From positions 1,344,001 to 1,408,000 of the forward strand of contig NZ_CP157522.1 in NCBI RefSeq assembly GCF_049075655.1: 64,000 nucleotides of DNA, in the 5' to 3' direction. The notes beneath the pieces were generated by a model. That model did no database searches. It saw only the letters and a program-made list of their open reading frames with translations, and was not told where the DNA came from. Position numbers and translations under genes: made by a program. This document shows positions 5,482 through 64,000 of the stretch, piece after piece. Source of the DNA: Methanothermococcus sp. Ax23 (GTDB taxonomy: Archaea; AGJL01; Methanococci; Methanococcales; Methanococcaceae). Positions within the stretch are counted from its first letter, which is position 1. Every line of letters starts with the position of its first letter.

Positions 5482-6624
5482 ATGGAGATTGTTTTTATAT
5501 TAAATTCCGATTTTGGTGTTAGGAATACGATTGGAGCTAGAGCATTACCAATAGCAAATGAGGTGTCCGAAAATAATAATTTAACTATATTATGTAGGGG
5601 ATATAATAAAGATTTAAAAGATTTTAATATTATTCAGTGTTTTCCTTATGCAGATTTTATTATGAAAGTATTTACGGCAATTCCCATATATATTTCAAAG
5701 GACTTTCCAGCGGGAAAGGTAAAAAATGATATTTTTGAATATTGTATTATAAGAAAATTAAATAAATTGAAAAATATTACTATAATCCATTCATGGGATT
5801 ATTTGCCAAATATATATGCTAACATAAAATCCAAAAATAAAAATGCAATAATAATCCAAGATGTAGCTATGGCGTTTCCAAATATTTTAAATGACGATGA
5901 AATGAAAACTATATGGGGGCAGGTTAAATCAAATATTCCAGAATATGTAAAAAATTCTTTAAAATACATTGATTATTATATCGTTCCATCGGATTTTGTG
6001 AAAAAATCATTAATTAATGAAGGAATTAATGAAACTAAAATTTTTGTTGTGCCATTTGGGGTAGATATAAGTAAATTCAAACCCATTGAAAAAGATTACA
6101 ATGGAACATTTAAAGTTGCATTCTCAGGGAATGTTAATAATAGAAAAGGTATTCCTTATTTGATTCAGGCTTGGAGAGAATTAAACCTAAAAGACGCAGA
6201 ATTAAACATATATGGTAGAGTTTATCCCGAGGTTAAAAAATATTTTAAAGATGCTGAAAAATATAATATAAAGGTTCATGGATTTGTAAGTAATATATAT
6301 AGTGAGCTCCCAAAAAATCACATCTATGTATTTCCATCATTGTTAGAAGGTTCTGCGAAATCTATTTATGAAGCATTGGCATGCGGGCTACCCGTGATTA
6401 CAACGGAAAATTCTGGAAGTGTTGTTGAAGATGAAAAAGAAGGATTTATAATTCCTACGCAAGATATTGAAATACTAAAAGAGAAAATATTATTTTTCTA
6501 CAATAACAGAAACAAAATCAAAGAGTTTGGAATAAATGCAAGAAAAAAGGCAGAACAATATACTTGGGAAAACTATGGAAAAAGAGTTAATGAAATTTAT
6601 AATTTGGTGAATAACCATGAGTAA
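5482..6624 (+). CDS. Glycosyltransferase family 4
   Basis: VPFGVD, RKGIPYL, PSLLEGSAKSIYEALACGLPVI. Confidence 0.9.
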   Translation: MEIVFILNSDFGVRNTIGARALPIANEVSENNNLTILCRGYNKDLKDFNIIQCFPYADFIMKVFTAIPIYISKDFPAGKVKNDIFEYCIIRKLNKLKNITIIHSWDYLPNIYANIKSKNKNAIIIQDVAMAFPNILNDDEMKTIWGQVKSNIPEYVKNSLKYIDYYIVPSDFVKKSLINEGINETKIFVVPFGVDISKFKPIEKDYNGTFKVAFSGNVNNRKGIPYLIQAWRELNLKDAELNIYGRVYPEVKKYFKDAEKYNIKVHGFVSNIYSELPKNHIYVFPSLLEGSAKSIYEALACGLPVITTENSGSVVEDEKEGFIIPTQDIEILKEKILFFYNNRNKIKEFGINARKKAEQYTWENYGKRVNEIYNLVNNHE

Positions 6625-7714
6625 AATTTTATATGTCCATAATGCAGATTTTTCAAAACCCTGTGCAAATAGAATTCAAGTTTTAAACATGTGTAAGGCA
6701 TTTAGAAAAATTGGGCAGGATATTACACTTATGAGTTTTAATAATGATAAAAATACTATTAAAAAAGTTTATAATGAAGATGTTGATTTTAATACAATTT
6801 CTTTGAAACCTTTTATAAATTATTATTTTAGAAGTTTATTGTTATTTTTGAGATTTTTGAGTATAAAAAATAATTATAATTATATTTACACTAGGGATTT
6901 GATATTTGCTTTTTTAGTTTCAAAATTCTTTAAAGATAAAAAGGTAATTTATGAATTGCATGATTTATCAAATGGTAAAATATGGCACTTTCTTTTTAAA
7001 CGAACTTTCAAAAATTTACATGGGTGCGTAGTTATTAGTGAAGGCTTAAAAGAAGAATTAATAAAATGGGGCTTTAATAGTAAAATATATGTATTGCATG
7101 ATGGTGTAGATTTAAATAGATTTGATATAAACATTTCAAAGAAAGATGTAAGAGCAAGATTAAACTTACCAAAAGATAAAATAATAATATCATATACTGG
7201 AAGTTTGCAGAATTGGAAGGGATATGAAACATTTTTAAAATCTTATAAGTATTTAAAAAATAAAAAAAATACTGTTTATTTGATTGTAGGGGGTAGTGAA
7301 GAACAGATAAACAAATTAAAAGAAGTATATAAAAATAAAGACATAATTTTTGTTCCATTTGTTGAAAATTCAAAAGTTCCTTTATTTTTAAAAGCGTCAG
7401 ATATTTTAGTTATTCCAAATTCATCTAAATATGAAATTTCAGTTAAATACACATCACCCTTAAAATTATTTGAATACATGGCATCAAAAAAACCAATCAT
7501 AGCTAGTGATTTACCAAGTATTAGGGAAGTGGTGGGTGAAAGTGAAGTTTTATTTTTTGTGCCAGATGATGAAAGAGATTTGGCATTAAAGATTGAAAAA
7601 CTTATAAATAATGATGAGTTGCAGAATAAATTGGCAAATAATGCCTATGAGAAGGTTAAAAACTATGCTTGGGAAAAGAGAGCCAGTAAAATTATAGAGA
7701 TTTTAAAAAAATAA
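6617..7714 (+). CDS. Glycosyltransferase family 4
   Basis: YTGSLQNWKG, SPLKLFEYMASKKPIIASDLP. Confidence 0.9.
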   Translation: MSKILYVHNADFSKPCANRIQVLNMCKAFRKIGQDITLMSFNNDKNTIKKVYNEDVDFNTISLKPFINYYFRSLLLFLRFLSIKNNYNYIYTRDLIFAFLVSKFFKDKKVIYELHDLSNGKIWHFLFKRTFKNLHGCVVISEGLKEELIKWGFNSKIYVLHDGVDLNRFDINISKKDVRARLNLPKDKIIISYTGSLQNWKGYETFLKSYKYLKNKKNTVYLIVGGSEEQINKLKEVYKNKDIIFVPFVENSKVPLFLKASDILVIPNSSKYEISVKYTSPLKLFEYMASKKPIIASDLPSIREVVGESEVLFFVPDDERDLALKIEKLINNDELQNKLANNAYEKVKNYAWEKRASKIIEILKK

Positions 7715-7726
7715 ATGGTGAAAAAT

Positions 7727-8794
7727 ATGAAAATCGCTAAAATAGGTAGTTATTCACTCAACTTAATAAAAAAATTCCCCACTCCGTTAAGAAATATAGC
7801 AGTAACTTATGGGACACAATTATTAGAAAAATTACCAAAATCGTGGTCGAGTAGATTATACAAAGAAATTTTATTAAATCATACTCCCTCATCATTTCTA
7901 ATTGAAGTAACAAATACATGTAATTTGAGATGTCCATTATGTTCAGTTCATAAACTAAATAGAAAGAAAAAAACTCTTAAATTTGAGGAATTAAAATACA
8001 TTGTAGATAATACTCCTGCTATAAAACACATTGGATTTTATATATTGGGGGAACCATTATTATGCAGAGATTTATTTAAAATGGTTAGATATTGCTCAAA
8101 TAAACAAATAACAACTGGATTTTCAACTAATGGTATGCTCATTGATAAATATATTGATGAAATATTTGAATCAGGGCTTGATTATATTCAAATTACAATA
8201 GATGGTGCTGATGCTGAGGCACATGAAAAATATCGAATAGGGAGTTCTTTTAAAAAAGTTTGTGAAAATATTGAAAAACTTACTAATGAAAAGAAAAGAA
8301 GAAATGCAAAAAAACCCTATATAAAAATCCAAACGCTAGTTTTTAAGTTCAACGAGCATCAACTAAAAGATATTATTGAATTAACAAAAAGGTTAGGTGT
8401 TGATGCCATTAATTTCAAAGCACCGAGTATTGGAAAAGATGACAAATCAAAATTTGAGATTGAAAAATTAATGAAAGAGTATATTCCAGAAAATAAAAGC
8501 AGATATAATCGATATAGTTTGAATATTAAATACTATAAAGATATGCCGATATGCCCTCAATTGTTCAATGGATATATACTATCAAATGGGGATGTAGTTC
8601 CTTGCTGTGCTGATTATGAAGGAGAATATAGTTTTGGAAATATATTTGAAGAGGATTTTGCAAGTATTTGGAAAGGAGAGCTTAGAAAAAAGTTTTTAGA
8701 TGAATTTTTCAGTAGAAATTCGAATTTATGTAAAAAATGTGATCTTGCTTATGGCATAATTGATGAAATTATTGAGTTTAATAATAATGGGTGA
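7727..8794 (+). CDS. Radical SAM protein with SPASM/twitch domain
   Basis: CNLRCPLC, GEPLL, STNG, ICPQ...NGDVVPCC...CKKC; start could be 7715 or 7727 (GGTGA precedes 7727). Confidence 0.9.
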   Translation: MKIAKIGSYSLNLIKKFPTPLRNIAVTYGTQLLEKLPKSWSSRLYKEILLNHTPSSFLIEVTNTCNLRCPLCSVHKLNRKKKTLKFEELKYIVDNTPAIKHIGFYILGEPLLCRDLFKMVRYCSNKQITTGFSTNGMLIDKYIDEIFESGLDYIQITIDGADAEAHEKYRIGSSFKKVCENIEKLTNEKKRRNAKKPYIKIQTLVFKFNEHQLKDIIELTKRLGVDAINFKAPSIGKDDKSKFEIEKLMKEYIPENKSRYNRYSLNIKYYKDMPICPQLFNGYILSNGDVVPCCADYEGEYSFGNIFEEDFASIWKGELRKKFLDEFFSRNSNLCKKCDLAYGIIDEIIEFNNNG

Positions 8795-8798
8795 AATT

Positions 8799-9512
8799 AT
8801 GTTTAAATCAATATTAATTAAAATATATTCTTCAATATTTATTAAGTATTCAAAAAAATTTTCAAGAAAAAATTTAAACAATTACTTAGAAAATACAATT
8901 AACAAATATGTAATTACCAGTGGTAATAATAATTTAAAAATCATAAATATTGGAGCAAGTGGTGCAATTGGAGATTTCATAAAATCGAAAATTGAATCTA
9001 AGGGATATAAACTCATTGAAATTGATATTGACGAGAAAAGATGCCCTGATTTGGTGCTGGATATACAAAATATGTATTCAATAGATGATAATTCTGTCGA
9101 TATTATTTTTTGCTTAGAAGTTCTAGAACATGTTAAAAATCCTTTTAAAGCCGTTGAGGAAATAAAAAGGATACTAAAATCAGGGGGTATTTTCATAGGT
9201 TCAACACCATTTATATTTCCGATACATGATGAGCCTTATGATTATTTTAGATACACAAAATATGGAATTTTAAGTTTATTCAATGAATTTGAATGTTTAG
9301 AATTGAAAGAAAGAAATTCATATATGGAATCATGGTATGTTATATTATTAAGATTGTTAAATATTGGGAATATTAAACAAAGACTTTTTGGAATTATGTT
9401 ATTTCCGTTCATGATATTATTACTTCCTTTTGTATTGCTTTTTGATGCAGTAATTACTAATAAACAATCTACAACAGGATATTTTTATGTTTTTAGGAAA
9501 AATAAAAAGTAA
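8799..9512 (+). CDS. Class I SAM-dependent methyltransferase (Methyltransf_11-like)
   Basis: NIGASG, LEVLEHVKNP, PFIFPIHDEPYDYFRYT. Confidence 0.85.
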   Translation: MFKSILIKIYSSIFIKYSKKFSRKNLNNYLENTINKYVITSGNNNLKIINIGASGAIGDFIKSKIESKGYKLIEIDIDEKRCPDLVLDIQNMYSIDDNSVDIIFCLEVLEHVKNPFKAVEEIKRILKSGGIFIGSTPFIFPIHDEPYDYFRYTKYGILSLFNEFECLELKERNSYMESWYVILLRLLNIGNIKQRLFGIMLFPFMILLLPFVLLFDAVITNKQSTTGYFYVFRKNKK

Positions 9513-9571
9513 TAAATTAAATAAAATTAAAGATACATCTTAAATATTACAATACACAATTCGGTGAACCT

Positions 9572-10033
9572 ATGTTTTTAAAGTTGAAATCTAGAATACT
9601 GATTTTAAGGAAAATAAAATATAAAATAAGGTATAAAAATTTAAAACTCGGAAAAAATGTAAAAATATACGGGACTTTAAAAATTATCGGCAAGGGTTTG
9701 ATAGAGATAGGGGACTCTTCAACATTAAATGAAGGCGTTATTTTAAATGCTAAGGATGATATAAAGATTGGAAAATATTGCCGTATTTCATCGTATGTCC
9801 AATTGATTACTGCGGGTTTGGATTTAACTAAACCTTACGCAAATAGACCGCACATAAGTAAACCAATAATATTAGAAGATGGAGTATGGGTGTGTTCTGG
9901 AGCCATTATACTTCCAGGAGTAAGGATAGGTGAAGGTAGCGTCATAGCCGCAGGCGCCGTTGTTAATAAAAATGTTCCACCTTATGAACTATGGGGAGGC
10001 GTTCCTGCAAGAAAAATAAAAAATTTAAAATAG
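9572..10033 (+). CDS. Hexapeptide-repeat O-acetyltransferase
   Basis: LbH repeats; GVWVCSGAIILPGVRIGEGSVIAAGAVV...GGVPAR. Confidence 0.9.
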   Translation: MFLKLKSRILILRKIKYKIRYKNLKLGKNVKIYGTLKIIGKGLIEIGDSSTLNEGVILNAKDDIKIGKYCRISSYVQLITAGLDLTKPYANRPHISKPIILEDGVWVCSGAIILPGVRIGEGSVIAAGAVVNKNVPPYELWGGVPARKIKNLK

Positions 10034-10066
10034 ATAATATTGCAGGTTTTGTGAAAAGATTAATAT

Positions 10067-11329
10067 CTATTTACAGTATTTGAAAAAAAATAAAAATGTA
10101 ATAGTCATTACAAATAACCTATGAATAATTCTTGCTATAATTGCCCCTAAAAGCCCATAAAAATAAATTCCAATTAAACTTAGTAATATTAATAATATAG
10201 CAGAGTAATTATAAAATTTATTTACTAAATCTCCTTTTTTTTCTTTTATTAAATAATTAAATGGCAAAGTATATATCATACTTATAAAACTTAAATGATA
10301 TACCATACTCAACCAAACATATTCATAGTATCTAGGATAAAACCATTTAAAAATGAAAGGAGCAACTACCCAGTAAATTAAAATTAAAAAAACAATCACT
10401 AACAAAAACTTTTTAAAATGTTTCATTAAATCTTTTTTACCCATGTCTTTGGAAGCAATTTTAGGTAATAGCATGGGAGTAAATGCATTAGCAAAAATTT
10501 TAATTTGATTGGGCAATAATGTAACAATTTTAAAAACTGCCAAATCAGAAAAGCCTATAATATAAGGCATAATTAAACTATCAAAATTCCATGAAACAAT
10601 AGCAAATGCCTGAGAATAACTAATACTTTTTCCAAATTCAATACCATGTTCATCAATTTTGTTATTTTTTACAAATTTTTTAACATAAAATAAACTAAAA
10701 TATCCATTAATAATAATTTGGACCAAAACAGTAATTACAACAATCCAAAAAACACTTTTTGTAAAAAATACTACAACAACTATCAAAATTGTTGAAATAA
10801 CATTAAAAAATGATGATAATTTAGCCAGTCCATCAAATCTTTTTTTGCCATTTAATAAGTTAGGATAAAATCCGGAAATGGAATAAAATGGAAAGATAGA
10901 AGACAATATTAAAAAAATTAACATCATATCAAATCTTCCAAAGAAATATTCATAAATGGAAAATCCTAATAATAATAAACTTCCCAGCCAACTCCATTTA
11001 AAAACTTCTTTCAATGCCTTAAAATATGTTCCTTCATAACCTTTTGCAACTGCCTGAACAACCGCAACACCCATTCCAGGAAGTGCAAAAACCCCTGCAA
11101 TCCCTAAAACTGTCATTACAAAACTATATTCTCCAAAAACTTCTTTTGATAATAAGTTGGCGAAAACGATACTTAATATAAACCCTTTCAAAGTTCCGAA
11201 GAATTGCCCAACACTTAACCAGAATCCGCCCCTTATAAAATATGGAAGGTCTAAACCTACCTTTGAGGAATAGTCCTTTGTAAGATCATATATTCTATCT
11301 TTTAAATTGTTATAGTGTTTCTTTACCAT
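10067..11329 (-). CDS. Oligosaccharide flippase (Wzx/MOP family)
   Basis: About 12 hydrophobic segments; ANLLSKEVFGEYS and YGLLGAIIA motifs; glycan-cluster context. Confidence 0.85.
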   Translation of the reverse strand: MVKKHYNNLKDRIYDLTKDYSSKVGLDLPYFIRGGFWLSVGQFFGTLKGFILSIVFANLLSKEVFGEYSFVMTVLGIAGVFALPGMGVAVVQAVAKGYEGTYFKALKEVFKWSWLGSLLLLGFSIYEYFFGRFDMMLIFLILSSIFPFYSISGFYPNLLNGKKRFDGLAKLSSFFNVISTILIVVVVFFTKSVFWIVVITVLVQIIINGYFSLFYVKKFVKNNKIDEHGIEFGKSISYSQAFAIVSWNFDSLIMPYIIGFSDLAVFKIVTLLPNQIKIFANAFTPMLLPKIASKDMGKKDLMKHFKKFLLVIVFLILIYWVVAPFIFKWFYPRYYEYVWLSMVYHLSFISMIYTLPFNYLIKEKKGDLVNKFYNYSAILLILLSLIGIYFYGLLGAIIARIIHRLFVMTITFLFFFKYCK

Positions 11330-11346
11330 GCAAATCCCGTTTAATT

Positions 11347-12546: not shown

Positions 12547-12553
12547 AATTTAC

Positions 12554-13063: not shown

Positions 13064-13171
13064 AATTCCCCATTTTATTTCATTTAATATTAATCCGATG
13101 TTTTTAATGAACACTGTTTTAAATCCTTATTTAATATACAGGAGCTCATGCATCATATACACTATTTTCAT

Positions 13172-14083: not shown

Positions 14084-14096
14084 TTTTTCCCTCTAT

Positions 14097-14573: not shown

Positions 14574-14577
14574 GGTT

Positions 14578-15135: not shown

Positions 15136-15197
15136 AATGCACCCCATATTTTTTATAGTATTTTTCAATATAAAATTAGTAGCAAAGTTATATATAA

Positions 15198-28901: not shown

Positions 28902-30482
28902 ATGGATAACTTAGAGCTCTTTAAAATACTTTTAAAAAATTATAAAATAAAAAATAAAAATAAAGAATACATTTCACCAAAAGAGATGAATATTACAGAT
29001 AATAATTGCGAGTATTTAGGAATTCCAAAAATAATTCTTATGGAAAATGCTGGTAAATCCATTGCTGATGAAGTTGTGAATTATTTAGATGAAAATAAAA
29101 AAAATAAAATATATATATTCTGCGGACTTGGGAACAACGGAGGAGATGGATTTGTTGCTGTTCGTCATTTAATGGGATACTGCGATTATATGGATGAAAT
29201 CTCAAAATCCTTCGGATTTTTACGATTTCCTTCGCTTCGCTCGGAAATAAATGTAATACTACTTGGAAAGGAGAATGAAATAAAAACCTATGAATCAAAG
29301 GAAAATTTTAAGATTTTAAAAAATATAAGTGAGCTGGATTTTAGGTTAAAAATAAAAGAAGCCATATGCCCAAATGAAATTTTAAAGGTAATTGAAAATA
29401 TTAAATCAGAAAAGGAAAATGTAATAATCATAGATGCCATGCTGGGAACAGGCATTAAAGGGGAGCTCCGAGAACCATTTAAAACTGTGGTAAATGGACT
29501 GAATAAATTAAAAAACGATAATGATAAAAGCAATAATTTGAAAATAATCTCCGTAGATACTGAAACTAAGGGATTAAATGCAGATTTGATAATTACATTC
29601 CACAAATTTAAGTTAGGTAATGATTTAAATAAAACCAATATTAAAAAAATAGGTATTCCACCAATAGCTGAGCATATAGTTGGATGGGGAGATTTAAAGG
29701 CATTAGCTAAAATAAATCCAAATTCTCATAAGGGGGACAATGGAAAGGTTTTGGTTGTTGGCGGTTCTAAGGAATTTTTCGGAGCTCCGATTTTATCTGC
29801 ATTGGCATCTTCAAAAATAGTGGATTTGGTAACTGTTGCATCTGTTAAAAATACAATTGATGCTTTAAGAAACTATCCTGAATTAATGGGTTATGAAATT
29901 GAAGGGGATTATTTTGGAGGGGAGCATGTGGATGAAGTTGTAGAGCTCTCTAAAAAATATGATGTTGTTGTTCTTGGAAATGGATTAAGTGTAAATAATA
30001 ATACAAAAAAGTTTGTAAATGGATTTTTAGAGGAAATGGAAAAATTAAATAAAAAGGTAGTAATAGATGCAGATGCTATAAAGGTTATAGGTTATAATAA
30101 TTTTAATTTTAGTGAGAATTTTATATTCACTCCCCATAAAAAAGAATTTGAATATATGGGACTTAATGTTAATGATAATATGGATATATCCAATATAAAC
30201 TCCACAATAGTTTTAAAGGGAAAATACGATTTAATATTCAATAAAAATAATATAAAAATAAACAAAACAGGAAATGCAGGTATGACTGTTGGAGGAACAG
30301 GAGATGTTTTATGCGGAATAATCGGTGGATTATTTAGTAAAAATGACGCCTTTATTTCAGGATGCTGTGGAGCATTTATAAATGGGTATGCGGGAGATTT
30401 ATTGCTTAAAGAGAAAGGATATTACTATAATGTTGTTGATATATTAAATAAAATACCAAATGTTTTAAATATATTTCAGTAA
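28902..30482 (+). CDS. nnr: Bifunctional NAD(P)H-hydrate epimerase/dehydratase (YjeF)
   Basis: LMENAG, GNNGGDG, DAMLGTG, SHKGDNG, VIDADA, TPHKKEF, GGTGDVL. Confidence 0.92.
   Translation: MDNLELFKILLKNYKIKNKNKEYISPKEMNITDNNCEYLGIPKIILMENAGKSIADEVVNYLDENKKNKIYIFCGLGNNGGDGFVAVRHLMGYCDYMDEISKSFGFLRFPSLRSEINVILLGKENEIKTYESKENFKILKNISELDFRLKIKEAICPNEILKVIENIKSEKENVIIIDAMLGTGIKGELREPFKTVVNGLNKLKNDNDKSNNLKIISVDTETKGLNADLIITFHKFKLGNDLNKTNIKKIGIPPIAEHIVGWGDLKALAKINPNSHKGDNGKVLVVGGSKEFFGAPILSALASSKIVDLVTVASVKNTIDALRNYPELMGYEIEGDYFGGEHVDEVVELSKKYDVVVLGNGLSVNNNTKKFVNGFLEEMEKLNKKVVIDADAIKVIGYNNFNFSENFIFTPHKKEFEYMGLNVNDNMDISNINSTIVLKGKYDLIFNKNNIKINKTGNAGMTVGGTGDVLCGIIGGLFSKNDAFISGCCGAFINGYAGDLLLKEKGYYYNVVDILNKIPNVLNIFQ
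29196..29248. repeat. Palindromic REP-like element lying in frame inside nnr
   Basis: GAAATC-tc-AAAATCC-TTC-GGATTTT-tac-GATTTC overlapping ATTTCC-TTCGCTTCGCTC-GGAAAT; encodes EISKSFGFLRFPSLRSEI. Confidence 0.65.
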
Positions 30483-33084: not shown

Positions 33085-33390
33085 TTACATGAATAAAGCA
33101 CCGAGACCTGCTGCAGCAGTTGCGGTTGTGTCTTCTTCTTTCTTTTCTTCTTTCTTTTCTTCTTTTGCTTCTTCAGCAGGAGCAGCAGGAGCAGCAGCAG
33201 CTGCAACTGGAGCAACAGCAGCTTTTTCGATAGCTTCTTCAATGTTTACTCCTTCTAATGCAGCAACTAATGCTTTAACTCTTGCGTCATCTGCTTCTAC
33301 ACCAGCAGCGGTTAATATTGCCTTAACAGCGTCTTCTGTGATTTCTTTACCTGCGGAATGTAATAATAATGCAGCGTATATGTATTCCAT
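33085..33390 (-). CDS. rpl12: Ribosomal stalk protein L12/P1
   Basis: [10 protein letters not shown], Ala-rich hinge, GLGALF. Confidence 0.97.
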
Positions 33391-35330: not shown

Positions 35331-35633
35331 TTATTGGCTTAAACTTTCCAATGTTTTATTACACAAATCAATTACTTCTCTCAATGCCTCTTTAAGCACT
35401 TCTTCGGCATCATTTCCTTCGGTGGTTTTTACAATCAATTTTGGATTGGAGATATATCTACCAGTTTCAGGATTTAAAACAGGATGCTCTATAACATAGG
35501 ACGCCATAATTACCTTATCCGTTTTTTCCAACAATATATCTTTTAAAAGGTTGCATAATGAATGGTCATCATCTATTAATTCTACTTCTATACTATTTTC
35601 TGTCTTTTCCAATATTCTCATGGATTTGCTCAT
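35331..35633 (-). CDS. rpoL: RNA polymerase subunit L (Rpo11)
   Basis: [17 protein letters not shown]. Confidence 0.92.
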
Positions 35634-35635
35634 GG

Positions 35636-36253
35636 TTATCCCTCCAAATTATAGTATTCTTTAATCAAATTTATATCTTTATTCAATACAATTTTGTCGT
35701 TTTCTATTCTGAAAAATTCTTTTTCAATGCATTCATCTATAATGTCGTTAATATCTTTTTTGGTGAAGTATGCCACCAACACAATAATGTTTCTCACTGG
35801 TTTTGAACCAACATTTACAAAATTGAGCTCAGTATTTATATCATATAATTCTTTTAATATGTTATTGAATTTGTCAAAAGGTAGTGAGCATTTAATTAGG
35901 TTTTCATCTTCTTTATATATAAAATTAATTTTTAAGGATTTAAGTGCATCTAATATCAAGTTTTTGTTAATGGGGTATTTTATATCGGATAAATAATACT
36001 CGAATAATCCCTTTGAATTTGGGTTATATTTTTTGTGGATTCTATTTATTAAATTCATAACACTTTTATAATCTTCCACTGTCTTGTTCTTATCATAACC
36101 ATATATTTTTATCCTAAGGGTGCTTACATCATTTAATTCTTCGGTATAGGCTGCTTTTGATTCTATTGAACAATCAACATCCATTTTTGAAATTTCTTTG
36201 CAAATATCCATTATCTCTCTATTGGTTGCCTTCACGCTTATCATTTTTTTCAT
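35636..36253 (-). CDS. Conserved archaeal protein upstream of rpoL (DUF2067-like)
   Basis: Clean ORF with GGTGA RBS; position in the rpoL operon. Confidence 0.55.
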
Positions 36254-36555: not shown

Positions 36556-37497
36556 ATGGAAAACGGGAGTATAGAAAATATAATAAAGAACACATCGGAA
36601 GTGGTATCCGTAGAAGAGTTAAAAGAAGTCATGAATAAAGATGAGAAAAGAGCATACATTGGATTTGAACCAAGTGGGAAAATTCATTTAGGACATTATC
36701 TCCAAATCAGAAAGATGATAGACTTGCAAAATGCAGGATTCGATATAATTATCCTACTGGCAGATTTACATGCATACTTAAATCAGAAAGGAACAATGGA
36801 AGAGATACAGGAGCTCGCAGAATACAACAAAACTATATTCAACGCTATGGGATTAAAGGCAGAGTATGTTTATGGTAGTGAGTTCCAGCTTGAAAAGGAT
36901 TATACAATCGATGTTTATAAAATAGCCCTAAAAACTACACTAAAAAGGGCTAGAAGAAGTATGGAAGTAATAGCAAGGGAAGATGAAAATCCAAAGGTTG
37001 CAGAAGTGGTATATCCATTAATGCAGGTAAATGACATAAAACATTTAAATGTGGATGTTGCAGTGGGTGGAATGGAACAGAGAAAAATACACATGCTTGC
37101 GCGGGAGCTCCTACCAAGTATGGGGTATAAGGCACCAGTTTGCATACACAATCCAGTGCTCACAGGTCTCGATGGAGAAGGCAAAATGTCATCATCAAAA
37201 GGGAACTTCATTGCAGTTGATGATGAGCCAAACACTATTAAATCAAAGATAAAAAAGGCATACTGTCCAATTGGAACTGTTGAAGGGAATCCGGTATTGG
37301 AGTTGGCAAAATACTATCTAAACTATCCACATACCATAGAAAGACCAGAAAAATTCGGAGGAAATTTAACCATCAGTAGCTATGAGGAATTGGAAAAAAT
37401 GTATGCTGAACAAAAACTACATCCTATGGACTTAAAAAATACCGTTGCAAAAGAGATTATAGATATTTTAGCTCCAATTAGGGAAAAATTAATATAA
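36556..37497 (+). CDS. tyrS: Tyrosine--tRNA ligase
   Basis: [36 protein letters not shown]. Confidence 0.97.
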
Positions 37498-37556: not shown

Positions 37557-38621
37557 ATGGATTTATTAAATGCCACATATTTTGGAAACACCCTATATAA
37601 TTATATAATTTTTATTTTGTTTATAATATTTGGAATCGTATTTGGAAAATTATTCAACTCCATCATCAAAAGATATATAAAAAATTTGGTTGGAAAAACA
37701 AAAACAAAATTTGATGATATTATATTGGAAGCTCTCGAGCTCCCCATTATATTATTAGTATTTGTTGGATTTCTATATTTGGGATTGAAATTTCTCGTTC
37801 TTCCAAGCAGTATTGATATATTGTTAAATGAGGCCATTAAAATCGTGGTTATATTATGCGGGACATGGTTTGCAGTCAATTTTGTTGATGATTTTATAGG
37901 TCATTATATCATGCCTATTGTAGAAAAATCAGAAACTAAATTTGATGACCAAGTGGTATCTCCATTGAGGAAGCTTTTAAAAATAATAATCGTAATTGCC
38001 GGGTTATTGATGGCACTTAAAACTGCTGGCTATGATATAACAACACTCCTTGCTGGTTTAGGTATCAGCGGTTTGGCCGTGGCTCTTGCAGCACAGGATA
38101 CCGTTAAAAATTTCATTGCAGGGGTGTTAATATTTGTGGATAAACCTTTTAAAATAAATCATTGGATTAAATTCGATGGTGGAGAGGGGATTGTAGAGGA
38201 TATAGGGATTAGAAGCACAAAAATAAGGACTTTTGGAGATAGCCTTATAATTGTTCCCAATGCAAATCTTTTAAGTGCGAATATCGAAAATTTCTCTGAG
38301 ATGAGAAAAAGGAGGGTGCTTGTAACTATTGGTTTAACCTACGACACTTCTGTGGAAAAACTGAGTAAAGCAAAAGAAATTATCAAAAACATAATCGACA
38401 ATCACAACGCCACACTACCCCCCATAAGAATCACATTTGAAGAGTTTGGCGATTTTTCATTAAATATAAGGGTTGAATACTTTATTAGAAACTTTGGTTT
38501 TGACTACTACTTAGATACCATGGATGAAATAAATATGAAAATTAAAGAGGAATTTGAAAAAGAAGGGATAGAGATGGCATTTCCAACTCAAACAGTTTAT
38601 TTGAAAAAAGACGGTGACTAA
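37557..38621 (+). CDS. MscS family mechanosensitive channel
   Basis: GLGISGLAVALAAQDT, DKPFKI, IGIRST, AFPTQT. Confidence 0.92.
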   Translation: MDLLNATYFGNTLYNYIIFILFIIFGIVFGKLFNSIIKRYIKNLVGKTKTKFDDIILEALELPIILLVFVGFLYLGLKFLVLPSSIDILLNEAIKIVVILCGTWFAVNFVDDFIGHYIMPIVEKSETKFDDQVVSPLRKLLKIIIVIAGLLMALKTAGYDITTLLAGLGISGLAVALAAQDTVKNFIAGVLIFVDKPFKINHWIKFDGGEGIVEDIGIRSTKIRTFGDSLIIVPNANLLSANIENFSEMRKRRVLVTIGLTYDTSVEKLSKAKEIIKNIIDNHNATLPPIRITFEEFGDFSLNIRVEYFIRNFGFDYYLDTMDEINMKIKEEFEKEGIEMAFPTQTVYLKKDGD

Positions 38622-44194: not shown

Positions 44195-44198
44195 TAAA

Positions 44199-56937: not shown

Positions 56938-56975
56938 GATGTATCACCCAAAAAATCAAAAAATAATTAATTAAT

Positions 56976-58337: not shown

Positions 58338-58510
58338 ATTACATCACCCAAAAAGTTTTTAAAGTAATATTCTAATCATATATTGTATTTTATTTAATAT
58401 TATACAAGAAAAGTTTAAAAAAATTCATAATATTTATATATTACGGTTTAATTTATAATATATAAACATATGTTTAATATACTAAAAAATATTATATGAG
58501 TGGCGATATT

Positions 58511-59068
58511 ATGAAAAAAACTGTATTTTTTATTACCATATTCCTTCTATCAATCCCAATAGTATTGGCAGATGATGTAAATCTAAATGTAGATATGCCC
58601 AACAAGGTTAGTAAAGGAGATAATTTTACCATTAATATAGATGTTAATTTAAAAAATAAGGACATATTAGGTTTTGAATGCACAGTGAAAATTCCTATCG
58701 AAAAAGTTGATGATATAAAAATAACAGGCATTGCAGGAAATGAAGAACTAAAAAAAGAAGCAGGGAAATTTTACGAAATTAAAAAGAAAGATTCATCAGT
58801 ATCTATAAGATTTACCACTTTTGGAAAGCCATTAAATTCAGATTTTCATTTAATGACTATAAATGCAACAGCTTTAAAAGAAGGTAATGTGACATTTACA
58901 TTTAAATCGATAGCATCTGATGAAAATGGACATAGGATTCCAGTTGATAAAAAAACTACCGATTTGATAATAGTTGATAACAACAAAACAGTTGAATCCG
59001 ATGAAAATTTTTTATTATCAATAATTGATGCCATAACGAATTTTTTAAAATCCATACTTGGTGGTTAA
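58511..59068 (+). CDS. Single-cohesin secreted protein with amphipathic C-terminal helix
   Basis: Signal peptide; VSKGDNFTINI..ILGFECTV..LMTINATALKEG..ASDENG; FLLSIIDAITNFLKSILGG. Confidence 0.7.
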   Translation: MKKTVFFITIFLLSIPIVLADDVNLNVDMPNKVSKGDNFTINIDVNLKNKDILGFECTVKIPIEKVDDIKITGIAGNEELKKEAGKFYEIKKKDSSVSIRFTTFGKPLNSDFHLMTINATALKEGNVTFTFKSIASDENGHRIPVDKKTTDLIIVDNNKTVESDENFLLSIIDAITNFLKSILGG

Positions 59069-59938
59069 ATGAAAATAAATAAATTATTAATTATACCTAT
59101 TTTTTTGATATTATTTACTGAAAATTTTGCATTGGATGATATCATTGTGAAATTAACCCCTGATAACATAGAAACTAATGGAGATTTGGTAAATTTTAAT
59201 ATTACAGTTGAAAATATACCTCCAAAGGAAAGTTTAGGCATGCCATCATCATATAGTGACTCAGAAATAAAAGACGGTGGATGTCAAGGCGTGGATATTT
59301 GTATAAATTATTCGAAGGATTATCTAAGCCCCATTGGATTTAATTGGAGCGATAAGTGTAAGGATGTTAAAATAAAGGAATATAAATTCGAAGATGGAAT
59401 TTTTTATTTATCCATAATGTTTGATGAGATAATATATGATAATACCATAAACCTCGGGACAATAACCTTTAACCCCATAAAAAAAGGAGAAACTAACTTG
59501 AATGTTAGTGGTAAGGTGAGCTCCGAATGGGGCGTTAAATATGATAGTGATAATATGTATTGGCGTAACTATGGTGAAACATCACAATATAAAGAGCCTT
59601 ATCCTAACACTAAATTTTATGGCGCCACAGTAAATATTAAGGAAATAGGAAATTACACAGGTTCTGCTAATTTAAATGGAGAATTGAATGACAATATAGT
59701 TTCATCATCTTCGTCTTCATCGACAATAATTAACAATGTAAATGTAATCACAAACCAAAGTGTGCCTGAAATTATTGTAAAGGAAATAAATATTTCAGAG
59801 GAGAAGCCGAATATAACGGTTATAATAAACACTGATGGAAAAAATGGTTTAGATTATAATTTATTAGCGTCTATTTTTGTTGGAGGTATTTTTTCAGGAA
59901 TTACATTTGGATTATTATTTAGAAGGATGATACCATGA
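59069..59938 (+). CDS. Cohesin-domain protein with Ser-rich linker and C-terminal TM anchor
   Basis: GDLVNFNITVENIP..GCQGVDICINYSKDYL..LGTITFNPIKKG; C-terminal hydrophobic helix followed by RR. Confidence 0.72.
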   Translation: MKINKLLIIPIFLILFTENFALDDIIVKLTPDNIETNGDLVNFNITVENIPPKESLGMPSSYSDSEIKDGGCQGVDICINYSKDYLSPIGFNWSDKCKDVKIKEYKFEDGIFYLSIMFDEIIYDNTINLGTITFNPIKKGETNLNVSGKVSSEWGVKYDSDNMYWRNYGETSQYKEPYPNTKFYGATVNIKEIGNYTGSANLNGELNDNIVSSSSSSSTIINNVNVITNQSVPEIIVKEINISEEKPNITVIINTDGKNGLDYNLLASIFVGGIFSGITFGLLFRRMIP

Positions 59939-62016
59939 AATACATAATTTTATTTTTATCCTTTTTTGTTTTTCTATCAGGAGTATGTGGTGAAAATGTA
60001 TCCGTAGAATTGACCCCAGAGAGTATAAATGCCTATGTTGGAGATACCTTTAATTTAGATTTAGTTGTAAAAAATGTCCCTGCTGATACAAAATGTGGTG
60101 GATTTGAAACTACTATATCTTATGATTCAAGTATTTTGAATTTAACGAACATTACGTTAAGTGGTACATCCAATACTGCAAATTTAAAAACAGTAGATGT
60201 TTCATCTGGAAAAATAAGTCTATTGTGGATGTCTAATGAACCCTATGGTAACTTCACAGTAGCAACATTATCATTTAAGGCGTTAAAGGATGGAAATGAT
60301 TCAGTAGATTTAACTCAAACTTCTGTATCTGATGCCAATGGGGTAAAATATTACATAACTTTAAAAAATTCAAACATAACAATAAATCCATTAAACCAGA
60401 CCTTAGGAACCATTACATTAAAAGATTTTGACCTGAATAAAAATATTGATGCAGTTTTATCCATAACTGGGGCAAAAACTCCTATAAAGAATATTTCAGG
60501 TAGCATTTCATTTAAAAATATAACAATAGAAAACAGCCCTACCCTAATGGACATATTTTGTAATAATTTCAGCTATACCATATATAATAACAATATTTCA
60601 TTTTTTATCATTCCAAATGAAAAGGATGAGAATAAAACCATATTCAATCTTTTAAAAATACCAGTAAATGTCAATAATGCTAACTATAACATTTCAATGA
60701 ATTTAACGATAAATGGAGAGCAGATTAAGAACATAACAATAAAAACAGAAGAAGAACAGGAAAATATCTCAGAGTATAAGGGATTAATGTTCTACGTAGA
60801 TTCTGGATACAATGAAGAAACAAATATCTCAATAGGCTACTCAAAAGAAATTAAGTTAAAAGTATGCAATATTGACAAAAATTTGACAAATTTTTCAGGA
60901 TATCTCTTCATAAATAATTCATTATTTGATGTTTCAGATTATGGAATTTCAGAATATTCTGACATATATGATAGAATAAACACTTCAAATATTACCTTTA
61001 ATAACAGCTACCTGTATTTCAACATTTCACTAATAAACGGAACAAATGGGACATTTAGTATTTTAAAGTTTAAATTGTCTCCAAAGATTAATGAAAATAT
61101 TTCTTCAATAATATATCTTGAAAATCTATCTATATACGCAAATGATACAAAAATAAACTTATCAGTTAAAAATTTAACAGTAAATATTGTAAAGAGGGAA
61201 TCCAATAATCCACCAAAATTAAAAATAGCCTACAAAATAGTTAATAACAAAGAAGTGCATTTTTATGCCTTAGGTTATGATGAGGATAACGACGATTTAA
61301 AATATGTATGGGATTTTGGAGATGGGAAAAACTCAACAGAGGAAAATCCAATTCATATATATTCAAATTATTCAATATATAAAATAAGATGTATTGTTAA
61401 TGACCCATTAAATGGAACAGACGAAGTGGAAGGAATTATCTCCATTAAAAATATTAATCCAGTAAATTATACAATTTCCAATGATTCCTTCATGCTGGAC
61501 AAGGAAAATGAAAATAAAACCATTTATTTAAATATAACCTTAAAAAATCCATTAAATTATAAAGTTGATGGGTATATCAATTTTATGGATTACGGAAATA
61601 ATTATCATCCGCCAAAAACCCAGTATCACATTATATTAAATCCAAATGGAACAAAAAATCTTATTATTCCAATAAATGTGTCAAAATCATGCAAAATTAA
61701 ATGGAATGTTGTTTATTATCCAAATATACGAAATAACGCAAACAGCAAAATAGATATCATATTCTATCAGTGGGATTTTGAAAAAAAGATAGAATTTAAA
61801 TCCAAACCACCGATGGTAATAAACAATTATACAAAAGTCATAAACTTCAACAATACAAAGGTAATATTGAAGGTAAATAAAGTTGAGACCGTTAGGAACT
61901 ATGTTATAAACAAAACCATAACAACTACAAGTCAAAACTCTATACCATACTATTCATTTGCGTTATTATTTGGATTTATAGTGGGAGTAATATTAATTAG
62001 ATTTAAAATTAAATAA
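59935..62016 (+). CDS. Membrane-anchored scaffoldin-like protein: cohesin(s), PKD domain, C-terminal TM
   Basis: First cohesin nearly identical to that of 53599-56937; PKD YVWDFGDGKNSTEENPIHIY; C-terminal TM plus basic tail; many N-x-S/T sequons. Confidence 0.85.
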   Translation: MKYIILFLSFFVFLSGVCGENVSVELTPESINAYVGDTFNLDLVVKNVPADTKCGGFETTISYDSSILNLTNITLSGTSNTANLKTVDVSSGKISLLWMSNEPYGNFTVATLSFKALKDGNDSVDLTQTSVSDANGVKYYITLKNSNITINPLNQTLGTITLKDFDLNKNIDAVLSITGAKTPIKNISGSISFKNITIENSPTLMDIFCNNFSYTIYNNNISFFIIPNEKDENKTIFNLLKIPVNVNNANYNISMNLTINGEQIKNITIKTEEEQENISEYKGLMFYVDSGYNEETNISIGYSKEIKLKVCNIDKNLTNFSGYLFINNSLFDVSDYGISEYSDIYDRINTSNITFNNSYLYFNISLINGTNGTFSILKFKLSPKINENISSIIYLENLSIYANDTKINLSVKNLTVNIVKRESNNPPKLKIAYKIVNNKEVHFYALGYDEDNDDLKYVWDFGDGKNSTEENPIHIYSNYSIYKIRCIVNDPLNGTDEVEGIISIKNINPVNYTISNDSFMLDKENENKTIYLNITLKNPLNYKVDGYINFMDYGNNYHPPKTQYHIILNPNGTKNLIIPINVSKSCKIKWNVVYYPNIRNNANSKIDIIFYQWDFEKKIEFKSKPPMVINNYTKVINFNNTKVILKVNKVETVRNYVINKTITTTSQNSIPYYSFALLFGFIVGVILIRFKIK
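59992..60384 (+). repeat. 393-bp cohesin-coding repeat, copy B
   Basis: Reverse complement of 56482-56874 with mosaic identity. Confidence 0.92.
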
Positions 62017-62207
62017 TTATTTTTTAATATTTTTTATACATACTCAAATATTAATTAAATAAAAATAATTTTTTTAATATATTTAATACCAGTTTAATAA
62101 TTATTTAAAATTGAATGGTAAATTTTAAATACTATTTTAATTACTATAATATTACTATAATATAAATATTTAATTAATTATTACCAATTAGATAAAAAGG
62201 TGTTATT

Positions 62208-63473
62208 ATGAAGAGAATATTAATACTCTCTATTTTGACATTAATATCGCTGATTCCCGCAACAATGGGAGCAGAAATAGGAGATGTAAATAACGATGGT
62301 TCAATAGATATTGCAGATGTGGTTTATCTGTTCAAGAACAGAAACCTTGACCTTGAAGATGGAGATTTGAACTGCGATAATTCCATAGATATTGCAGATG
62401 TGGTTTATCTCTTCAAAAACTACGATACATTTAGAAGTCCAGTTGTATTTGCTAAAACATTTAAATTAGAGCCGCACTGGGATGAAGGATATTGTTATAT
62501 GGAAGATTCAAAAGGATACAAATTTGTTTTATTAAAAGAAGGTGCAACACCACCAAATATTCCTGATGCAAAGGTAATCACAACACCAGTGAAAAGCATA
62601 GATACTATATTTTACTGCCCAATTGTTTCAACAGCTGATGTATTAAACGATTCCTCATGCTATGATACAATAAAAGGAGTTCCGAGCTCCGTCTTGAAAT
62701 ATTCATCGGAGCTCACAAAAAGATACGACGAAGGTAAGGTTGCAAATATTGGTACATCATCCAGTATGAATTATGAAGTAGTAGTTAATACAACTCCTGA
62801 TATTGTATTCTTAGGAGATTGGTCGTCCCATGACACAATGGAAGCTAAATTGAAAGAATTGGGAATTACTGTATCAAGGTTCTACACATATGATGAACCA
62901 ACATTCTTAGGAAGGATAGAGTGGGTGAAATATGCCGCTGCCTTCTGGGGAGAAGACAAATACAACAAAACAAACGATTACTTCCAAAGTGCATGGAAGA
63001 AGAAGAACGAGTTGTTAAGGACAACAAGAAACGCAAAAGACTACCCAAAAGTTGTTAATTTCTGGAAATATAGCGATACAAGCACGCCAAGTATTCCACA
63101 GGCTCAAAATTTTTACAGTAAGTTAATAAATGATTTCAGAGGAGATTATGCATTTAATGACATACCTGGAACAGGTTCTGAAAAATTAGATACTGAAACA
63201 TTTATGGAAAGGGCAACGAATGCTGATGTTGTCATATTAAGACAGTGTAGTGATATAAAAACAAAAGAAGACTTATTGGCTAAATATCCAACATCAGGCT
63301 TTGAAAACTTCAATGCGTATAAAAATGGAAGATTCTATGTTTCAAAACCTGATTATTATATATGGGAAGCAAAAGACCCGATTGGATATATGGAGGACTA
63401 TGCCAAGATGGTTCATCCAGAATTATTCCCTAATGGAGATAGTGATTTAAAATACTACATTAAGCTTCAATAA
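62208..63473 (+). CDS. Dockerin-fused ABC-type substrate-binding protein (BtuF/Fe-siderophore class)
   Basis: Signal peptide; GDVNNDGSIDIADVVYLFK x2; PVKSI, EPTFLGRIEWVK.AAAF, FNAYKNG, DYAKMVHPELF; no lipobox or TM anchor. Confidence 0.85.
   Translation: MKRILILSILTLISLIPATMGAEIGDVNNDGSIDIADVVYLFKNRNLDLEDGDLNCDNSIDIADVVYLFKNYDTFRSPVVFAKTFKLEPHWDEGYCYMEDSKGYKFVLLKEGATPPNIPDAKVITTPVKSIDTIFYCPIVSTADVLNDSSCYDTIKGVPSSVLKYSSELTKRYDEGKVANIGTSSSMNYEVVVNTTPDIVFLGDWSSHDTMEAKLKELGITVSRFYTYDEPTFLGRIEWVKYAAAFWGEDKYNKTNDYFQSAWKKKNELLRTTRNAKDYPKVVNFWKYSDTSTPSIPQAQNFYSKLINDFRGDYAFNDIPGTGSEKLDTETFMERATNADVVILRQCSDIKTKEDLLAKYPTSGFENFNAYKNGRFYVSKPDYYIWEAKDPIGYMEDYAKMVHPELFPNGDSDLKYYIKLQ
62280..62423 (+). repeat. 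Dockerin duplicated F-hand repeat
   Basis: 46 of 48 aa identical to the dockerin at 58089-58232. Confidence 0.9.
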
Positions 63474-63617
63474 ATCTTTATTTTATTAAATAAAATGAAA
63501 TTATTTTTTATTTCTATTTCTATTTTTTACTATTTCATTTTGTTTTTATATGTTTAAACATAATTTTTTTATATATAGTTTAAAATAAATAATTTTATAG
63601 ACTTATAACGTGGAATA

Positions 63618-64000
63618 ATGAAAACGATGCAAAAATATTCGGTATTTGTAAATTGGTTTAAAGATTATGTAAGCAAATATAATTTAGACCCAAAAGACCA
63701 AGAAAACATAAATTTAAAAATTTACCATACTTACCGCGTATGCGATGAAATAACTGATATTGGAAATAGTTTAAACCTAAATGAGCTCGACATGTTTTTA
63801 GCAAAAACTATTGCATTATTCCATGACATCGGAAGATTTGAACAGTATGCAAAATATAAAACATTTTCAGATGCTAAATCCGAAGACCATGCATTATTGG
63901 GTATAAAAATACTATTGGAGAATAATATACTAGGGGAGCTCGACAACTCTCATGTTGAAATAATTATAAATGCAATTAAATATCACAACAAAGCAAAAAT
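63618..64000 (+). CDS. HD-domain phosphohydrolase, 3'-truncated by the window edge
   Basis: Manual translation: MKTMQKYS...LKIYHTYRV...IALFHDIGRFEQY...DHALLG. Confidence 0.85.
   Translation, partial: MKTMQKYSVFVNWFKDYVSKYNLDPKDQENINLKIYHTYRVCDEITDIGNSLNLNELDMFLAKTIALFHDIGRFEQYAKYKTFSDAKSEDHALLGIKILLENNILGELDNSHVEIIINAIKYHNKAK

Follow-up and report, generated by a model that had tools for sequence, protein, structure and literature searches.

GAGCTC is a highly iterated palindrome in Methanothermococcus sp. Ax23 and four other genomes of the Methanococcales

Abundance of GAGCTC in the window and in the genome

The stretch of DNA analysed here (the window) comprises 64,000 nucleotides of Methanothermococcus sp. 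Ax23 (genome G000, positions C1:1344001-1408000), a 1.67-Mb genome in two contigs, for which 1,670,680 bases were used for site counting. The window carries 68 copies of the palindromic hexamer GAGCTC, running from 6304 (first copy) to 63936-63941 (last copy), and the same word is hyper-abundant and dispersed throughout the genome, in all coding frames and in non-coding DNA. It is the archaeal counterpart of the highly iterated palindromes (HIPs) of cyanobacteria, an independent case in another domain of life, as was proposed in the original prediction, which had classed the word as HIP1-like from the letters of the window.

The 68 sites given in that prediction were an exact count, and all 15 of its example coordinates were recovered in the computed list. 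In 100 dinucleotide-preserving shuffles of the window a mean of 2.93 sites was obtained (standard deviation (sd) 1.66, largest value 7), which corresponds to a roughly 23-fold excess, slightly higher than the 15- to 20-fold estimated originally; the GC content, put at about 30% by eye, is 25-35% in the window and 31.9% in the main contig. For the whole genome 2,089 sites were counted, or about one per 797 bases. Genome-wide hexamer counts under Markov models, recommended at the time as a check, gave observed/expected ratios far from 1 at zero order (16.7), first order (19.7) and second order (13.1). Among all 4,096 hexamers of G000, GAGCTC is the most over-represented, and the next-ranked words overlap it (e.g. 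GGAGCT/AGCTCC, 7.8x). The maximal-order Markov ratio is just 1.6, since the sites also raise the counts of GAGCT and AGCTC, the pentamers contained in them.

The sites are dispersed single copies and do not form a repeat family: their flanks are unique, and the commonest 14-mer around a site occurs in six copies. Each full 50-kb bin holds 49-78 sites (16 in the short last bin), with a median spacing of 532 bases and a coefficient of variation (CV) of 1.09. Nearest-neighbour distances are near-Poisson except that pairs separated by 20-40 bases are in 1.6x excess, and the sites are uniform along genes except in the first decile. The second replicon of 7.7 kb carries four of them.

The original prediction started from the premise that palindromic hexamers are usually avoided, and many of them are indeed depleted 7-30x in G000 (CTGCAG, GTGCAC, GTTAAC, GTATAC, GTCGAC, CTTAAG, CTATAG, CTCGAG and GATC-containing words). 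Because these palindromes are so strongly avoided, GAGCTC opposes the trend of its own genome.

As a separate observation, the depleted set includes all four CTNNAG and all four GTNNAC palindromes besides the words containing GATC, and the depletion of CTNNAG and GTNNAC suggests restriction pressure at degenerate sites. In two related genomes described below, G013 and G005, CTGCAG is 3-3.6x enriched, opposite to G000.

Coding frames, codon usage and non-coding DNA

Genes were taken from our own crude open reading frame (ORF) calls, independently of any annotation (1,604 ORFs, 86.5% of the main contig). They contain 1,956 sites, of which 1,101, 630 and 225 lie in phases 0, 1 and 2, respectively. 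Phase 0, in which the word encodes Glu-Leu, accounts for 56% of the coding sites. GAG-CTC encodes 1,101 of the 3,959 Glu-Leu dipeptides, 16.5x more than under independent codon choice; this comparison was used instead of a dicodon-preserving shuffle, which keeps phase-0 sites by construction. Glu-Leu itself is mildly over-represented (1.20), with Leu-Glu at 0.89.

Two codon nulls were applied. When synonymous codons were shuffled within genes (null A), 192 sites were expected against the 1,956 observed, and each phase was enriched 7-13x (phases 1 and 2, 7-10x). This expectation is generous, because the codon pool contains the sites' own codons. When the GAGCTC sites were held fixed and kept out of the codon pool (null B), about 45 sites were expected, which gives a codon-aware excess of about 43x. 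An apparent depletion of GAA-CTC and GAG-CTT (0.30) was rejected as an artefact of the sites' own codons in the pool, as it disappeared under null B.

Relative to local base composition, non-coding DNA of G000 is enriched 17.0x and coding DNA 16.4x; the values for G013 are 13.7x and 10.4x. Since non-coding DNA is enriched as much as coding DNA, the cause acts on DNA or on transcripts of any strand and not on protein. The original claims that the sites fall in all three codon phases and in intergenic DNA, and that amino-acid demand does not account for them, were thus borne out, and the ratio of observed to expected sites stayed far from 1 after codon shuffling under either null.

An effect at the level of RNA or translation, with GAGCUC as the target of an RNA-modifying enzyme or an RNase, or with GAG-CTC as a favoured codon pair, would have to explain why phases 1 and 2 are enriched 7-10x and why strictly non-coding sites are enriched 17x with the same flank preferences. 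The extended preference around the core, described below, is moreover a palindrome of the DNA type. What speaks for such an effect is that a palindrome is present in transcripts of either strand and is self-complementary as RNA, that phase 0 holds 56% of the coding sites and that Glu-Leu is in surplus (1.20); it is nevertheless judged highly improbable.

Shape of the word and its neighbours

In the main contig GAGCTC occurs 4,170 times when both strands are counted, against 13-466 occurrences for each pair of words that differ from it by one letter; GAGCTA, GAGCTG and GAGCTT are therefore uncommon, as had been noticed from the window. Around 113 strictly non-coding sites the preference extends beyond the core, to G at -1 and C at -2, mirrored by C at +6 and G at +7, each at about 3x background. 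Given the core, GGAGCTCC is found 6.25x over expectation and CGGAGCTCCG 26x (35 copies against 1.3), and the favoured extended form is the 10-bp palindrome CGGAGCTCCG, in non-coding sites too. A symmetric, dimeric DNA-binding protein would be expected to leave such a footprint, with a 6-bp core inside a 10-bp palindrome.

Under codon null B the words one letter away from GAGCTC occur at 0.83-1.5x of expectation in G000 and at 0.82-1.7x in G013, the exceptions being two words that contain GATC or GCGC and are avoided independently. The transition neighbours do not differ in this respect: GAGTTC/GAACTC and GAGCTT/AAGCTC stand at 1.19x and 0.83x in G000 and at 0.89x and 1.03x in G013. Because the full word alone is raised and its one-off neighbours are not drained, the force would act like a fixation bias for the full word, be it selection, biased conversion or biased uptake, and not like a one-way conversion such as Vsr repair, which drains its substrate neighbour. 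By a stationary-distribution argument, which is an estimate and not a measurement, its scaled strength would be about ln 43, or approximately 3.8 per site.

Distribution among related genomes

The comparison set consisted of 40 species-level genomes of the order, with 13 genomes in genus g1 and with a second family, f2. Five of the 40 are rich in GAGCTC, namely G000 (2,089 sites), G012 (2,070), G010 (1,645), G013 (1,515) and G003 (1,321); the remaining 35 genomes carry 4-229 sites. With four other species-level genomes at 1,321-2,070 sites, the enrichment is not limited to the window or to one assembly. In addition, three further public assemblies show 0 differences from the window in their long pieces.

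G000 has its nearest relatives in G003, G012 and G010, with 70-96% nucleotide identity in the orthologous DNA of the window (the assembly of G003 is 90% complete; that of G010 is one contig, 99% complete). G013 is filed in another genus, and its median protein identity to G000 is 76% over 1,227 reciprocal best hits. A single-gene tree was built with 26 of 31 relatives (a usable locus was lacking in G010, G014, G016 and G024, and the fragment of G001 fell below the length cut). It placed G013 outside genus g1, so that the trait needs two changes of state; a tree in which the four high rows are held together was not rejected (p-AU 0.067).

Some low congeners have fewer sites of a wider class. 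In G005 (680 kb) all four NAGCTN palindromes are low (0.04-0.23x; AAGCTT 0.05x), and G008, G002 and G007 have 12-33 AAGCTT sites per genome, about 10x poorer than G000. Because all NAGCTN palindromes or AAGCTT are low in them too, these congeners avoid AGCT in general and not GAGCTC as such. This indicates an AluI-like pressure on AGCT in G005, G008, G002 and G007, which are sister to the GAGCTC-rich lineages.

Conservation, gains and losses of sites

Codon alignments of 1,227 orthologs of G000 and G013 (the latter was compared as a whole genome) showed that 20%, 32% and 22% of the phase-0, phase-1 and phase-2 sites are shared. At conserved Glu-Leu pairs, a site is present in G013 in 32% of the cases with a site in G000 and in 13% of those without one. 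Glu-Leu is conserved at 63% of sites and at 61.5% of non-sites, and because this conservation is equal, the sites do not lie at special protein positions and no forced amino-acid change is visible. A "gap" at Hamming distance 1 between the two genomes was dropped as evidence for rapid reversion, since it is predicted by the equilibrium codon-pair table.

For the scoring of gains and losses, G003, G012, G010 and G013 were projected onto positions 22,800-64,000 of the window (41 kb), where 52 positions had data in all five genomes. In the comparison with the other high genomes, the sites of G000 are kept in G003 in 34 of 39 cases (0.51 for GC-matched hexamers, p 2e-6), in G012 in 36 of 45 (controls 0.345, p 5e-10), in G010 in 14 of 38 (controls 0.21) and in G013, for the window region, in 19 of 40 (controls 0.21). 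Maintenance over short distances is thus well above that of control words.

Among the 52 scored positions, ten sites are unique to G010, and in some of these the other four genomes share one non-site word. Ten more are found in G000, G003 and G012 only, several of them with the same non-site word in G010 and G013; three are confined to G000 and G003, two to G012 and one to G000. Six were lost in G010, and five are present in all five genomes. Nine are unique to G013 and are not polarisable. Examples are given in Table 1; the site unique to G000 differs at three positions from the word of its closest relative. Sites were created on every lineage after the split, and the gains are of the same order as the losses; for this reason the trait is a running equilibrium and no fossil. 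The site-creating process put forward in the original prediction is supported, together with a site-maintaining one, by these polarised gains, the conservation above controls and the equal enrichment of non-coding DNA.

That the sites are a decaying relic, an artefact of assembly or contamination, or a hidden repeat family can hardly be credited on these data. Lineage-specific gains occur where the other genomes hold identical non-site words, the flanks are unique, five independent assemblies share the trait and three more match the window with 0 differences in their long pieces. The argument left to a relic is that, with two genomes alone, pure decay and an equilibrium account equally well for the sharing data.

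The sites could also be bound by a chromosome-organising or nucleoid-associated protein, with weak selection for an adequate density of about one per 800 bases. The palindromic 10-bp footprint, also seen in non-coding sites, would suit such a protein, as would the even density per bin (49-78 per full 50 kb), the equal enrichment of coding and non-coding DNA, and the conservation above controls in close relatives combined with interchangeable positions, as if density were what matters. For HIP1, a role in chromosome architecture was proposed from its periodicity in the part of PMC5861425 that deals with this question. The spacing of GAGCTC is near-Poisson and not more even than random (CV 1.09, with the 1.6x excess of pairs at 20-40 bases), the enrichment extends to recently acquired DNA and to the small replicon, and no candidate protein was found for this role. 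Selection per site among about 2,000 redundant sites would also be extremely weak compared with the roughly 43x boost required. We regard chromosome organisation as an unlikely cause.

Resident DNA, acquired DNA and exchange between lineages

In every GC bin, core genes, defined by an ortholog in G013, are about twice as rich in sites relative to expectation as accessory genes (e.g. 20.9x against 10.2x), with accessory genes still enriched about 10x. The longest site-free gaps include low-GC islands such as the first 6.3 kb of the window and a Type III restriction-modification (R-M) locus. From the excess in core over accessory genes, the site-free low-GC islands and the sites on the second replicon, it follows that the force is cumulative on resident DNA and takes time.

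Positions 1-11392 of the window, low in GC (25-27%), hold a single GAGCTC site. For the genes of the island to which they belong, the same-codon fraction with G013 is 0.77-0.90 (G000 1343808-1348410, where it is 0.81-0.90, and 1354067-1355329), the median of the genome being 0.545, and the island as a whole (G000:C1:1342927-1355393) looks like recently exchanged DNA. Across the genome, the same-codon fraction exceeds 0.8 in 35 of 1,197 orthologs of G000 and G013 (median 0.545, robust sd 0.054), compared with 1 of 455 in the control pair of G000 and G005, for which 45% of the G005 genome was used (positions 1-680000). Because of this difference, recent exchange of DNA between the two high lineages G000 and G013 is deduced. 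The 35 orthologs are grouped in six or more multi-gene blocks, of which two are in the window (1-4,410 and 56,976-62,016).

Another block of this kind was noted at G000:C1:1550421-1562855 and G013:C1:1673995-1682553; its proteins are 91-99% identical between the two genomes, and the same-codon fraction is 0.80-0.90. As judged from N-termini alone, it appears to encode subunits of the methyl-coenzyme-M reductase operon and a MoxR-like ATPase.

Where one relative has a site that another lacks, the word of the second departs from GAGCTC at three or more of the six positions in 38 of 73 cases; 16.8 of 73 were expected after matching for the divergence of 42 flanking bases. In two non-overlapping sets, such differences were found in 14 of 27 cases against 4.8 expected (p 6e-5). 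The excess of multi-nucleotide changes that remains suggests import of divergent alleles or patch-like events.

A Chi-like marker of self-DNA would account for the gradient from core to accessory genes and for the site-poor islands, as well as for the boost of the whole word and the equal enrichment of coding and non-coding DNA. According to this explanation the motif would stop or modulate degradation, so that DNA rich in sites would survive breaks and foreign DNA poor in them would be destroyed; sites would accumulate by the same donor advantage that is proposed below for homologous exchange, here during break repair. A palindrome would work in either orientation, and the heavy restriction pressure on other palindromes is compatible with such a system. 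Chi sites, however, are asymmetric and orientation-dependent, we know of no such system in archaea, and no candidate nuclease followed the trait, including a 110-aa protein of the Mrr_cat fold. This explanation is thought very unlikely.

Methyltransferases and other candidate proteins

A co-distributed methyltransferase or Vsr-like gene had been suggested as a correlate of the sites, and none common to the five high genomes was found. With the PF00145 profile for C5 methyltransferases there was no match in G000 and none over the family cut-off in the 13 genomes of g1; matches are present in G013 and in all genomes of g3, g4 and f2. The absence of a C5 methyltransferase was rejected as the determinant, because it is true of all g1 genomes and not of the high genomes alone. 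The PF03852 profile for Vsr gave no match in G000, the control being positive in three genomes. Among the methyltransferases of the PF00145, PF01555, PF02384 and PF02086 types in G000 none has orthologs in all high genomes, although an unrecognised family may exist. A search with the PF09566 (RE_SacI) profile for SacI-family endonucleases gave no match, and the control genomes were without a match as well.

G000 encodes a Type IIG-like methyltransferase of 1,069 aa, an MmeI-like one of 1,078 aa, an Eco57I-type one of 567 aa, a Type I HsdM and a Type III Mod. Two of its loci are listed in Table 1. The first, the Type II-like pair L001, is 68-77% identical in five low-GAGCTC genomes of f2 and has decayed in G003, with internal stops. 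As it is present in five low genomes and was not found in G010, G012 and G013, it was rejected as the determinant. The second, the L010 enzyme, is 77% identical in G013, where the cassette stands in a different context with codon identities of 0.77 and 0.85 for its two genes. In G012 the match (74%) is confined to its N-terminal half, the specificity region having diverged, and lies on the second contig, taken to be a plasmid. L010 together with the next gene is, to judge by these identities, a recently exchanged mobile cassette. It was rejected as the determinant because it was not found in G010 or G003, and G010 gained at least ten sites without it.

In G010 an insertion (locus L021, G010:C1:206587-210312) occupies the place of a short spacer of the window (Table 1). 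It encodes a 446-aa PF01555 SPPY methyltransferase with a C-terminal SNase-like domain, and an MjaI-family endonuclease (PF09568, E 2e-46). A near-identical 437-aa methyltransferase is found at the same locus in G003 (L211, G003:C76:1-2280). The specificity of MjaI is CTAG, and because the G010 copy adjoins an endonuclease of this family, the methyltransferase of G010 and G003 is assigned to an R-M module unrelated to GAGCTC and was rejected as the determinant; the locus is empty in G000.

Further candidates were rejected on their distribution or function. The Type III Mod (L002), the HsdM (L004), L005 and L006 are without an ortholog in G013, and L003, L007, L009 and L011 are tRNA, rRNA or protein methyltransferases. 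An AAA+ ATPase (G000 654951-656207) is present in 23 of 31 genomes, all outside one g1 subclade; an AlkD-like protein was found in G000 and G013, with a weak match of 25% identity in G018; and the distribution of the 110-aa Mrr_cat-fold protein does not follow the trait. Synteny-aware subtraction using 45% of G005 gave 13 candidates.

These results bear on methyltransferase-coupled biased repair, the mechanism first suggested for the window and also Elhai's model for HIP1, in which GAGCTC or AGCT would be marked and a mismatch nuclease or glycosylase would correct near-sites to the full word. HIP1 and alternate HIPs co-occur with cognate methyltransferases in the genomes treated in the relevant part of PMC4390886, and persistent orphan AGCT m4C methyltransferases are reported from other archaeal groups in the corresponding part of PMC10609329. 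G000 has several methyltransferases of unassigned specificity, and the multi-nucleotide excess at sites that turn over could reflect patch repair. The suggestion was nevertheless not supported. No PF00145 match over the cut-off was obtained in G000 or the 13 g1 genomes, nor Vsr in G000; L001, L010 and the other G000 enzymes each lack an ortholog in some high genome, the enzyme of G010 and G003 pairs with an MjaI-family endonuclease, and G010 gained its sites (at least ten) without L010. The one-off neighbours, transition neighbours included, are not depleted, unlike the case of Dcm/Vsr in Escherichia coli. Biased repair of this kind is accordingly rated as quite unlikely.

Table 1. Coordinates of GAGCTC sites and of other features in the window (plain numbers) and in the genomes (genome:contig:positions)
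Feature	Coordinates	Strand	Remarks
GAGCTC sites	6304..63941	strandless (palindrome)	68 in window, of 2,089 in genome
Site in all five high genomes (11111)	29782..29787		Others: 31167, 40760, 44585, 47765
G000-only site, gain on G000 terminal branch	37737..37742		G003 GAAGTT, G012 GAACAT, G010 GAATTA, G013 GATATG
G000+G003-only site, gain on their short stem	37105..37110		G012 and G010 GAAATT; G013 GAAGTT
Further G000+G003-only sites	40882, 51695		Five-genome projection; at 40882 the others have GAATTA, AAATTA, GAACTA
G000+G003+G012 site, stem gain	36811..36816		GAATTG in both G010 and G013
Further G000+G003+G012 stem gains	62709, 42832		Five-genome projection; GAACTT (62709) and CATTTC (42832) in both others
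G010-only gain	33096..33101		AAGCAC in G000, G003, G012, G013; GAGCTC in G010
Site-free low-GC (25-27%) stretch	1..6303		Part of ~12.5-kb site-poor island G000:C1:1342927-1355393
Intergenic spacer	35620..35656		~40 bases in G000; ~2-kb insertion at the syntenic place in G010, beside DUF2067 gene
Type II-like pair (L001)	G000:C1:1436107-1439832	convergent, overlapping genes	300-aa PF01555 SPPY methyltransferase and 245-aa ORF without Pfam match
Cassette L010/L182	G000:C1:353653-357512; G013:C1:15926-19775; G012:C2:5124-7376		1,069-aa Eco57I/MmeI-type methyltransferase with TaqI_C domain and 216-aa downstream gene

Comparison with known systems

HIP1 (GCGATCGC) and the alternate HIPs of cyanobacteria are 15- to 300-fold over-represented, occur in every frame of coding DNA as well as in non-coding DNA, and are conserved above control palindromes between related genomes, according to the sections of PMC5861425 devoted to them. 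In the part of PMC13756078 concerned with HIP1, the word is described as recognised by two methylases and is proposed as an uptake sequence, and the transformation experiments described in the relevant part of bioRxiv 10.1101/2024.09.10.611283 report that HIP1 improves natural transformation and that this effect depends on methylation. GAGCTC resembles HIP1 in being a short, GC-rich palindrome that is hyper-abundant in all frames and in non-coding DNA, conserved above controls and patchy among relatives. It differs in that HIP1 is a cyanobacterial octamer, and GAGCTC an archaeal hexamer core in an AT-rich genome, and in that cognate methylases are known for HIP1, whereas none was found for GAGCTC in G000. 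The main text of the HIP papers that were searched makes no mention of archaea or of GAGCTC, and the literature search gave no paper that links GAGCTC enrichment to the Methanococcales (supplements were outside both searches). The sections on orphan enzymes in the archaeal R-M survey list persistent AGCT m4C orphans in other orders and nothing like the enrichment of GAGCTC (PMC10609329).

The DNA uptake sequence (DUS) of Neisseria and the uptake signal sequence (USS) of the Pasteurellaceae are a second point of reference in view of the likenesses to GAGCTC. They occur about once per kb, lie within genes in several frames, are denser in core than in acquired DNA and are shared by related species. 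Their accumulation can be explained by molecular drive without a benefit at each site, and for them a minor pilin or an uptake receptor has been identified. GAGCTC has a comparable density (one per 797 bases), is shared by five of 40 genomes and is about 2x more enriched in core than in accessory genes. Unlike these asymmetric words of 9-12 bases, it has a palindromic core of 6 bp, or 10 bp with weak flanks, and what is known of its role comes from sequence.

In very-short-patch repair by Dcm/Vsr of E. coli, CCWGG is enriched by repair that is biased to the full site. Such a system needs a C5 methyltransferase and Vsr and drains the neighbours derived by T:G mismatch, and none of the three was seen in G000. 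SacI recognises GAGCTC, and a symmetric 6-bp site is typical of a dimeric Type II enzyme. Restriction, however, normally leads to avoidance, as for other palindromes in G000 and for AGCT in the sister genomes, and here the word is enriched.

To our knowledge, highly iterated palindromes have been a puzzle confined to cyanobacteria for 30 years, and every model leans on cognate methyltransferases. GAGCTC adds a different word with no detectable cognate methyltransferase and gives comparative leverage, as high, neutral and AGCT-avoiding genomes occur within one order.

Proposed mechanism

As a tentative explanation, we propose a molecular drive like that considered for HIP1 and DUS, in which a symmetric protein favours site-bearing donor DNA in homologous exchange; it seems plausible to us, though short of probable. 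A dimeric, sequence-specific DNA-binding protein would read the 6-10-bp palindrome, and DNA bearing the site would become the preferred donor in homologous exchange, either when cells take up DNA from kin or in recombination or repair between genomes or chromosome copies. What the data show is a lineage-specific process, still running, that favours the full palindrome in coding DNA of all three phases, in non-coding DNA and on the small replicon. Sites reach about 43x the codon-aware expectation and are held better than control words over short evolutionary distances, with positions turning over across long ones. DNA methylation does not appear to be required. Circumstantial evidence for exchange comes from the orthologs of G000 and G013 with a high same-codon fraction and from the excess of multi-nucleotide differences, and HIP1, with its reported effect on transformation and its proposed role in uptake, offers a parallel.

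Several points weigh against this proposal. No reader protein was identified, and none of the candidates tested passed on phyletic distribution. Known uptake sequences have a length of 9-12 bases and are non-palindromic, a 6-bp core is a poor discriminator against foreign DNA, and no archaeal uptake signal is known to us. The exchange between G000 and G013 may reflect a shared habitat and not the motif, as one pair of high genomes was set against 45% of one low genome. The high genomes may form a single clade, in which case the phyletic pattern may amount to one evolutionary event. Genome-wide conservation between G000 and G013 is modest, 402 of 1,666 sites (24%) compared with 15.8% (sd 6.7%) for hexamers with four G/C, a rank of 40 among 397. 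Finally, the multi-nucleotide excess comes partly from locally divergent flanks, and its samples are small and its comparisons overlap in lineage.

A bolder form of donor advantage in exchange is offered as a rather doubtful extension. In it, CGGAGCTCCG would be a methylation-independent "kin tag", the first signal for DNA exchange in Archaea, read by a dimeric protein, driving its own rise to about 2,000 copies per genome and channelling gene flow among the five lineages, with the AGCT-avoiding sisters lying across a restriction barrier built on the same core. If the signal does act in exchange, it would be the first archaeal uptake or recombination signal and would bear on how species barriers arise in polyploid, naturally competent methanogens.

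In practical terms, a SacI site about every 800 bases affects cloning and restriction mapping in these organisms, and the density of the motif is a marker that separates native from recently acquired DNA.

Other observations in the window

About 50 bases at approximately 29192-29248, within an ORF of 526 aa, have copies of 85-98% identity elsewhere in G000 (e.g. C1:1003490-1003538) and further copies in G003, G007, G008, G010 and G012; the stretch may be a short dispersed element or a conserved motif of paralogs. In the contigs of the three public assemblies, clustered differing letters and joints were seen at window positions 45758-45836, 46350-46401 and 56646-56818, a pattern typical of paralogous repeats. 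The region 53,599-62,016 of the window encodes several large, mutually similar proteins with a secreted appearance.

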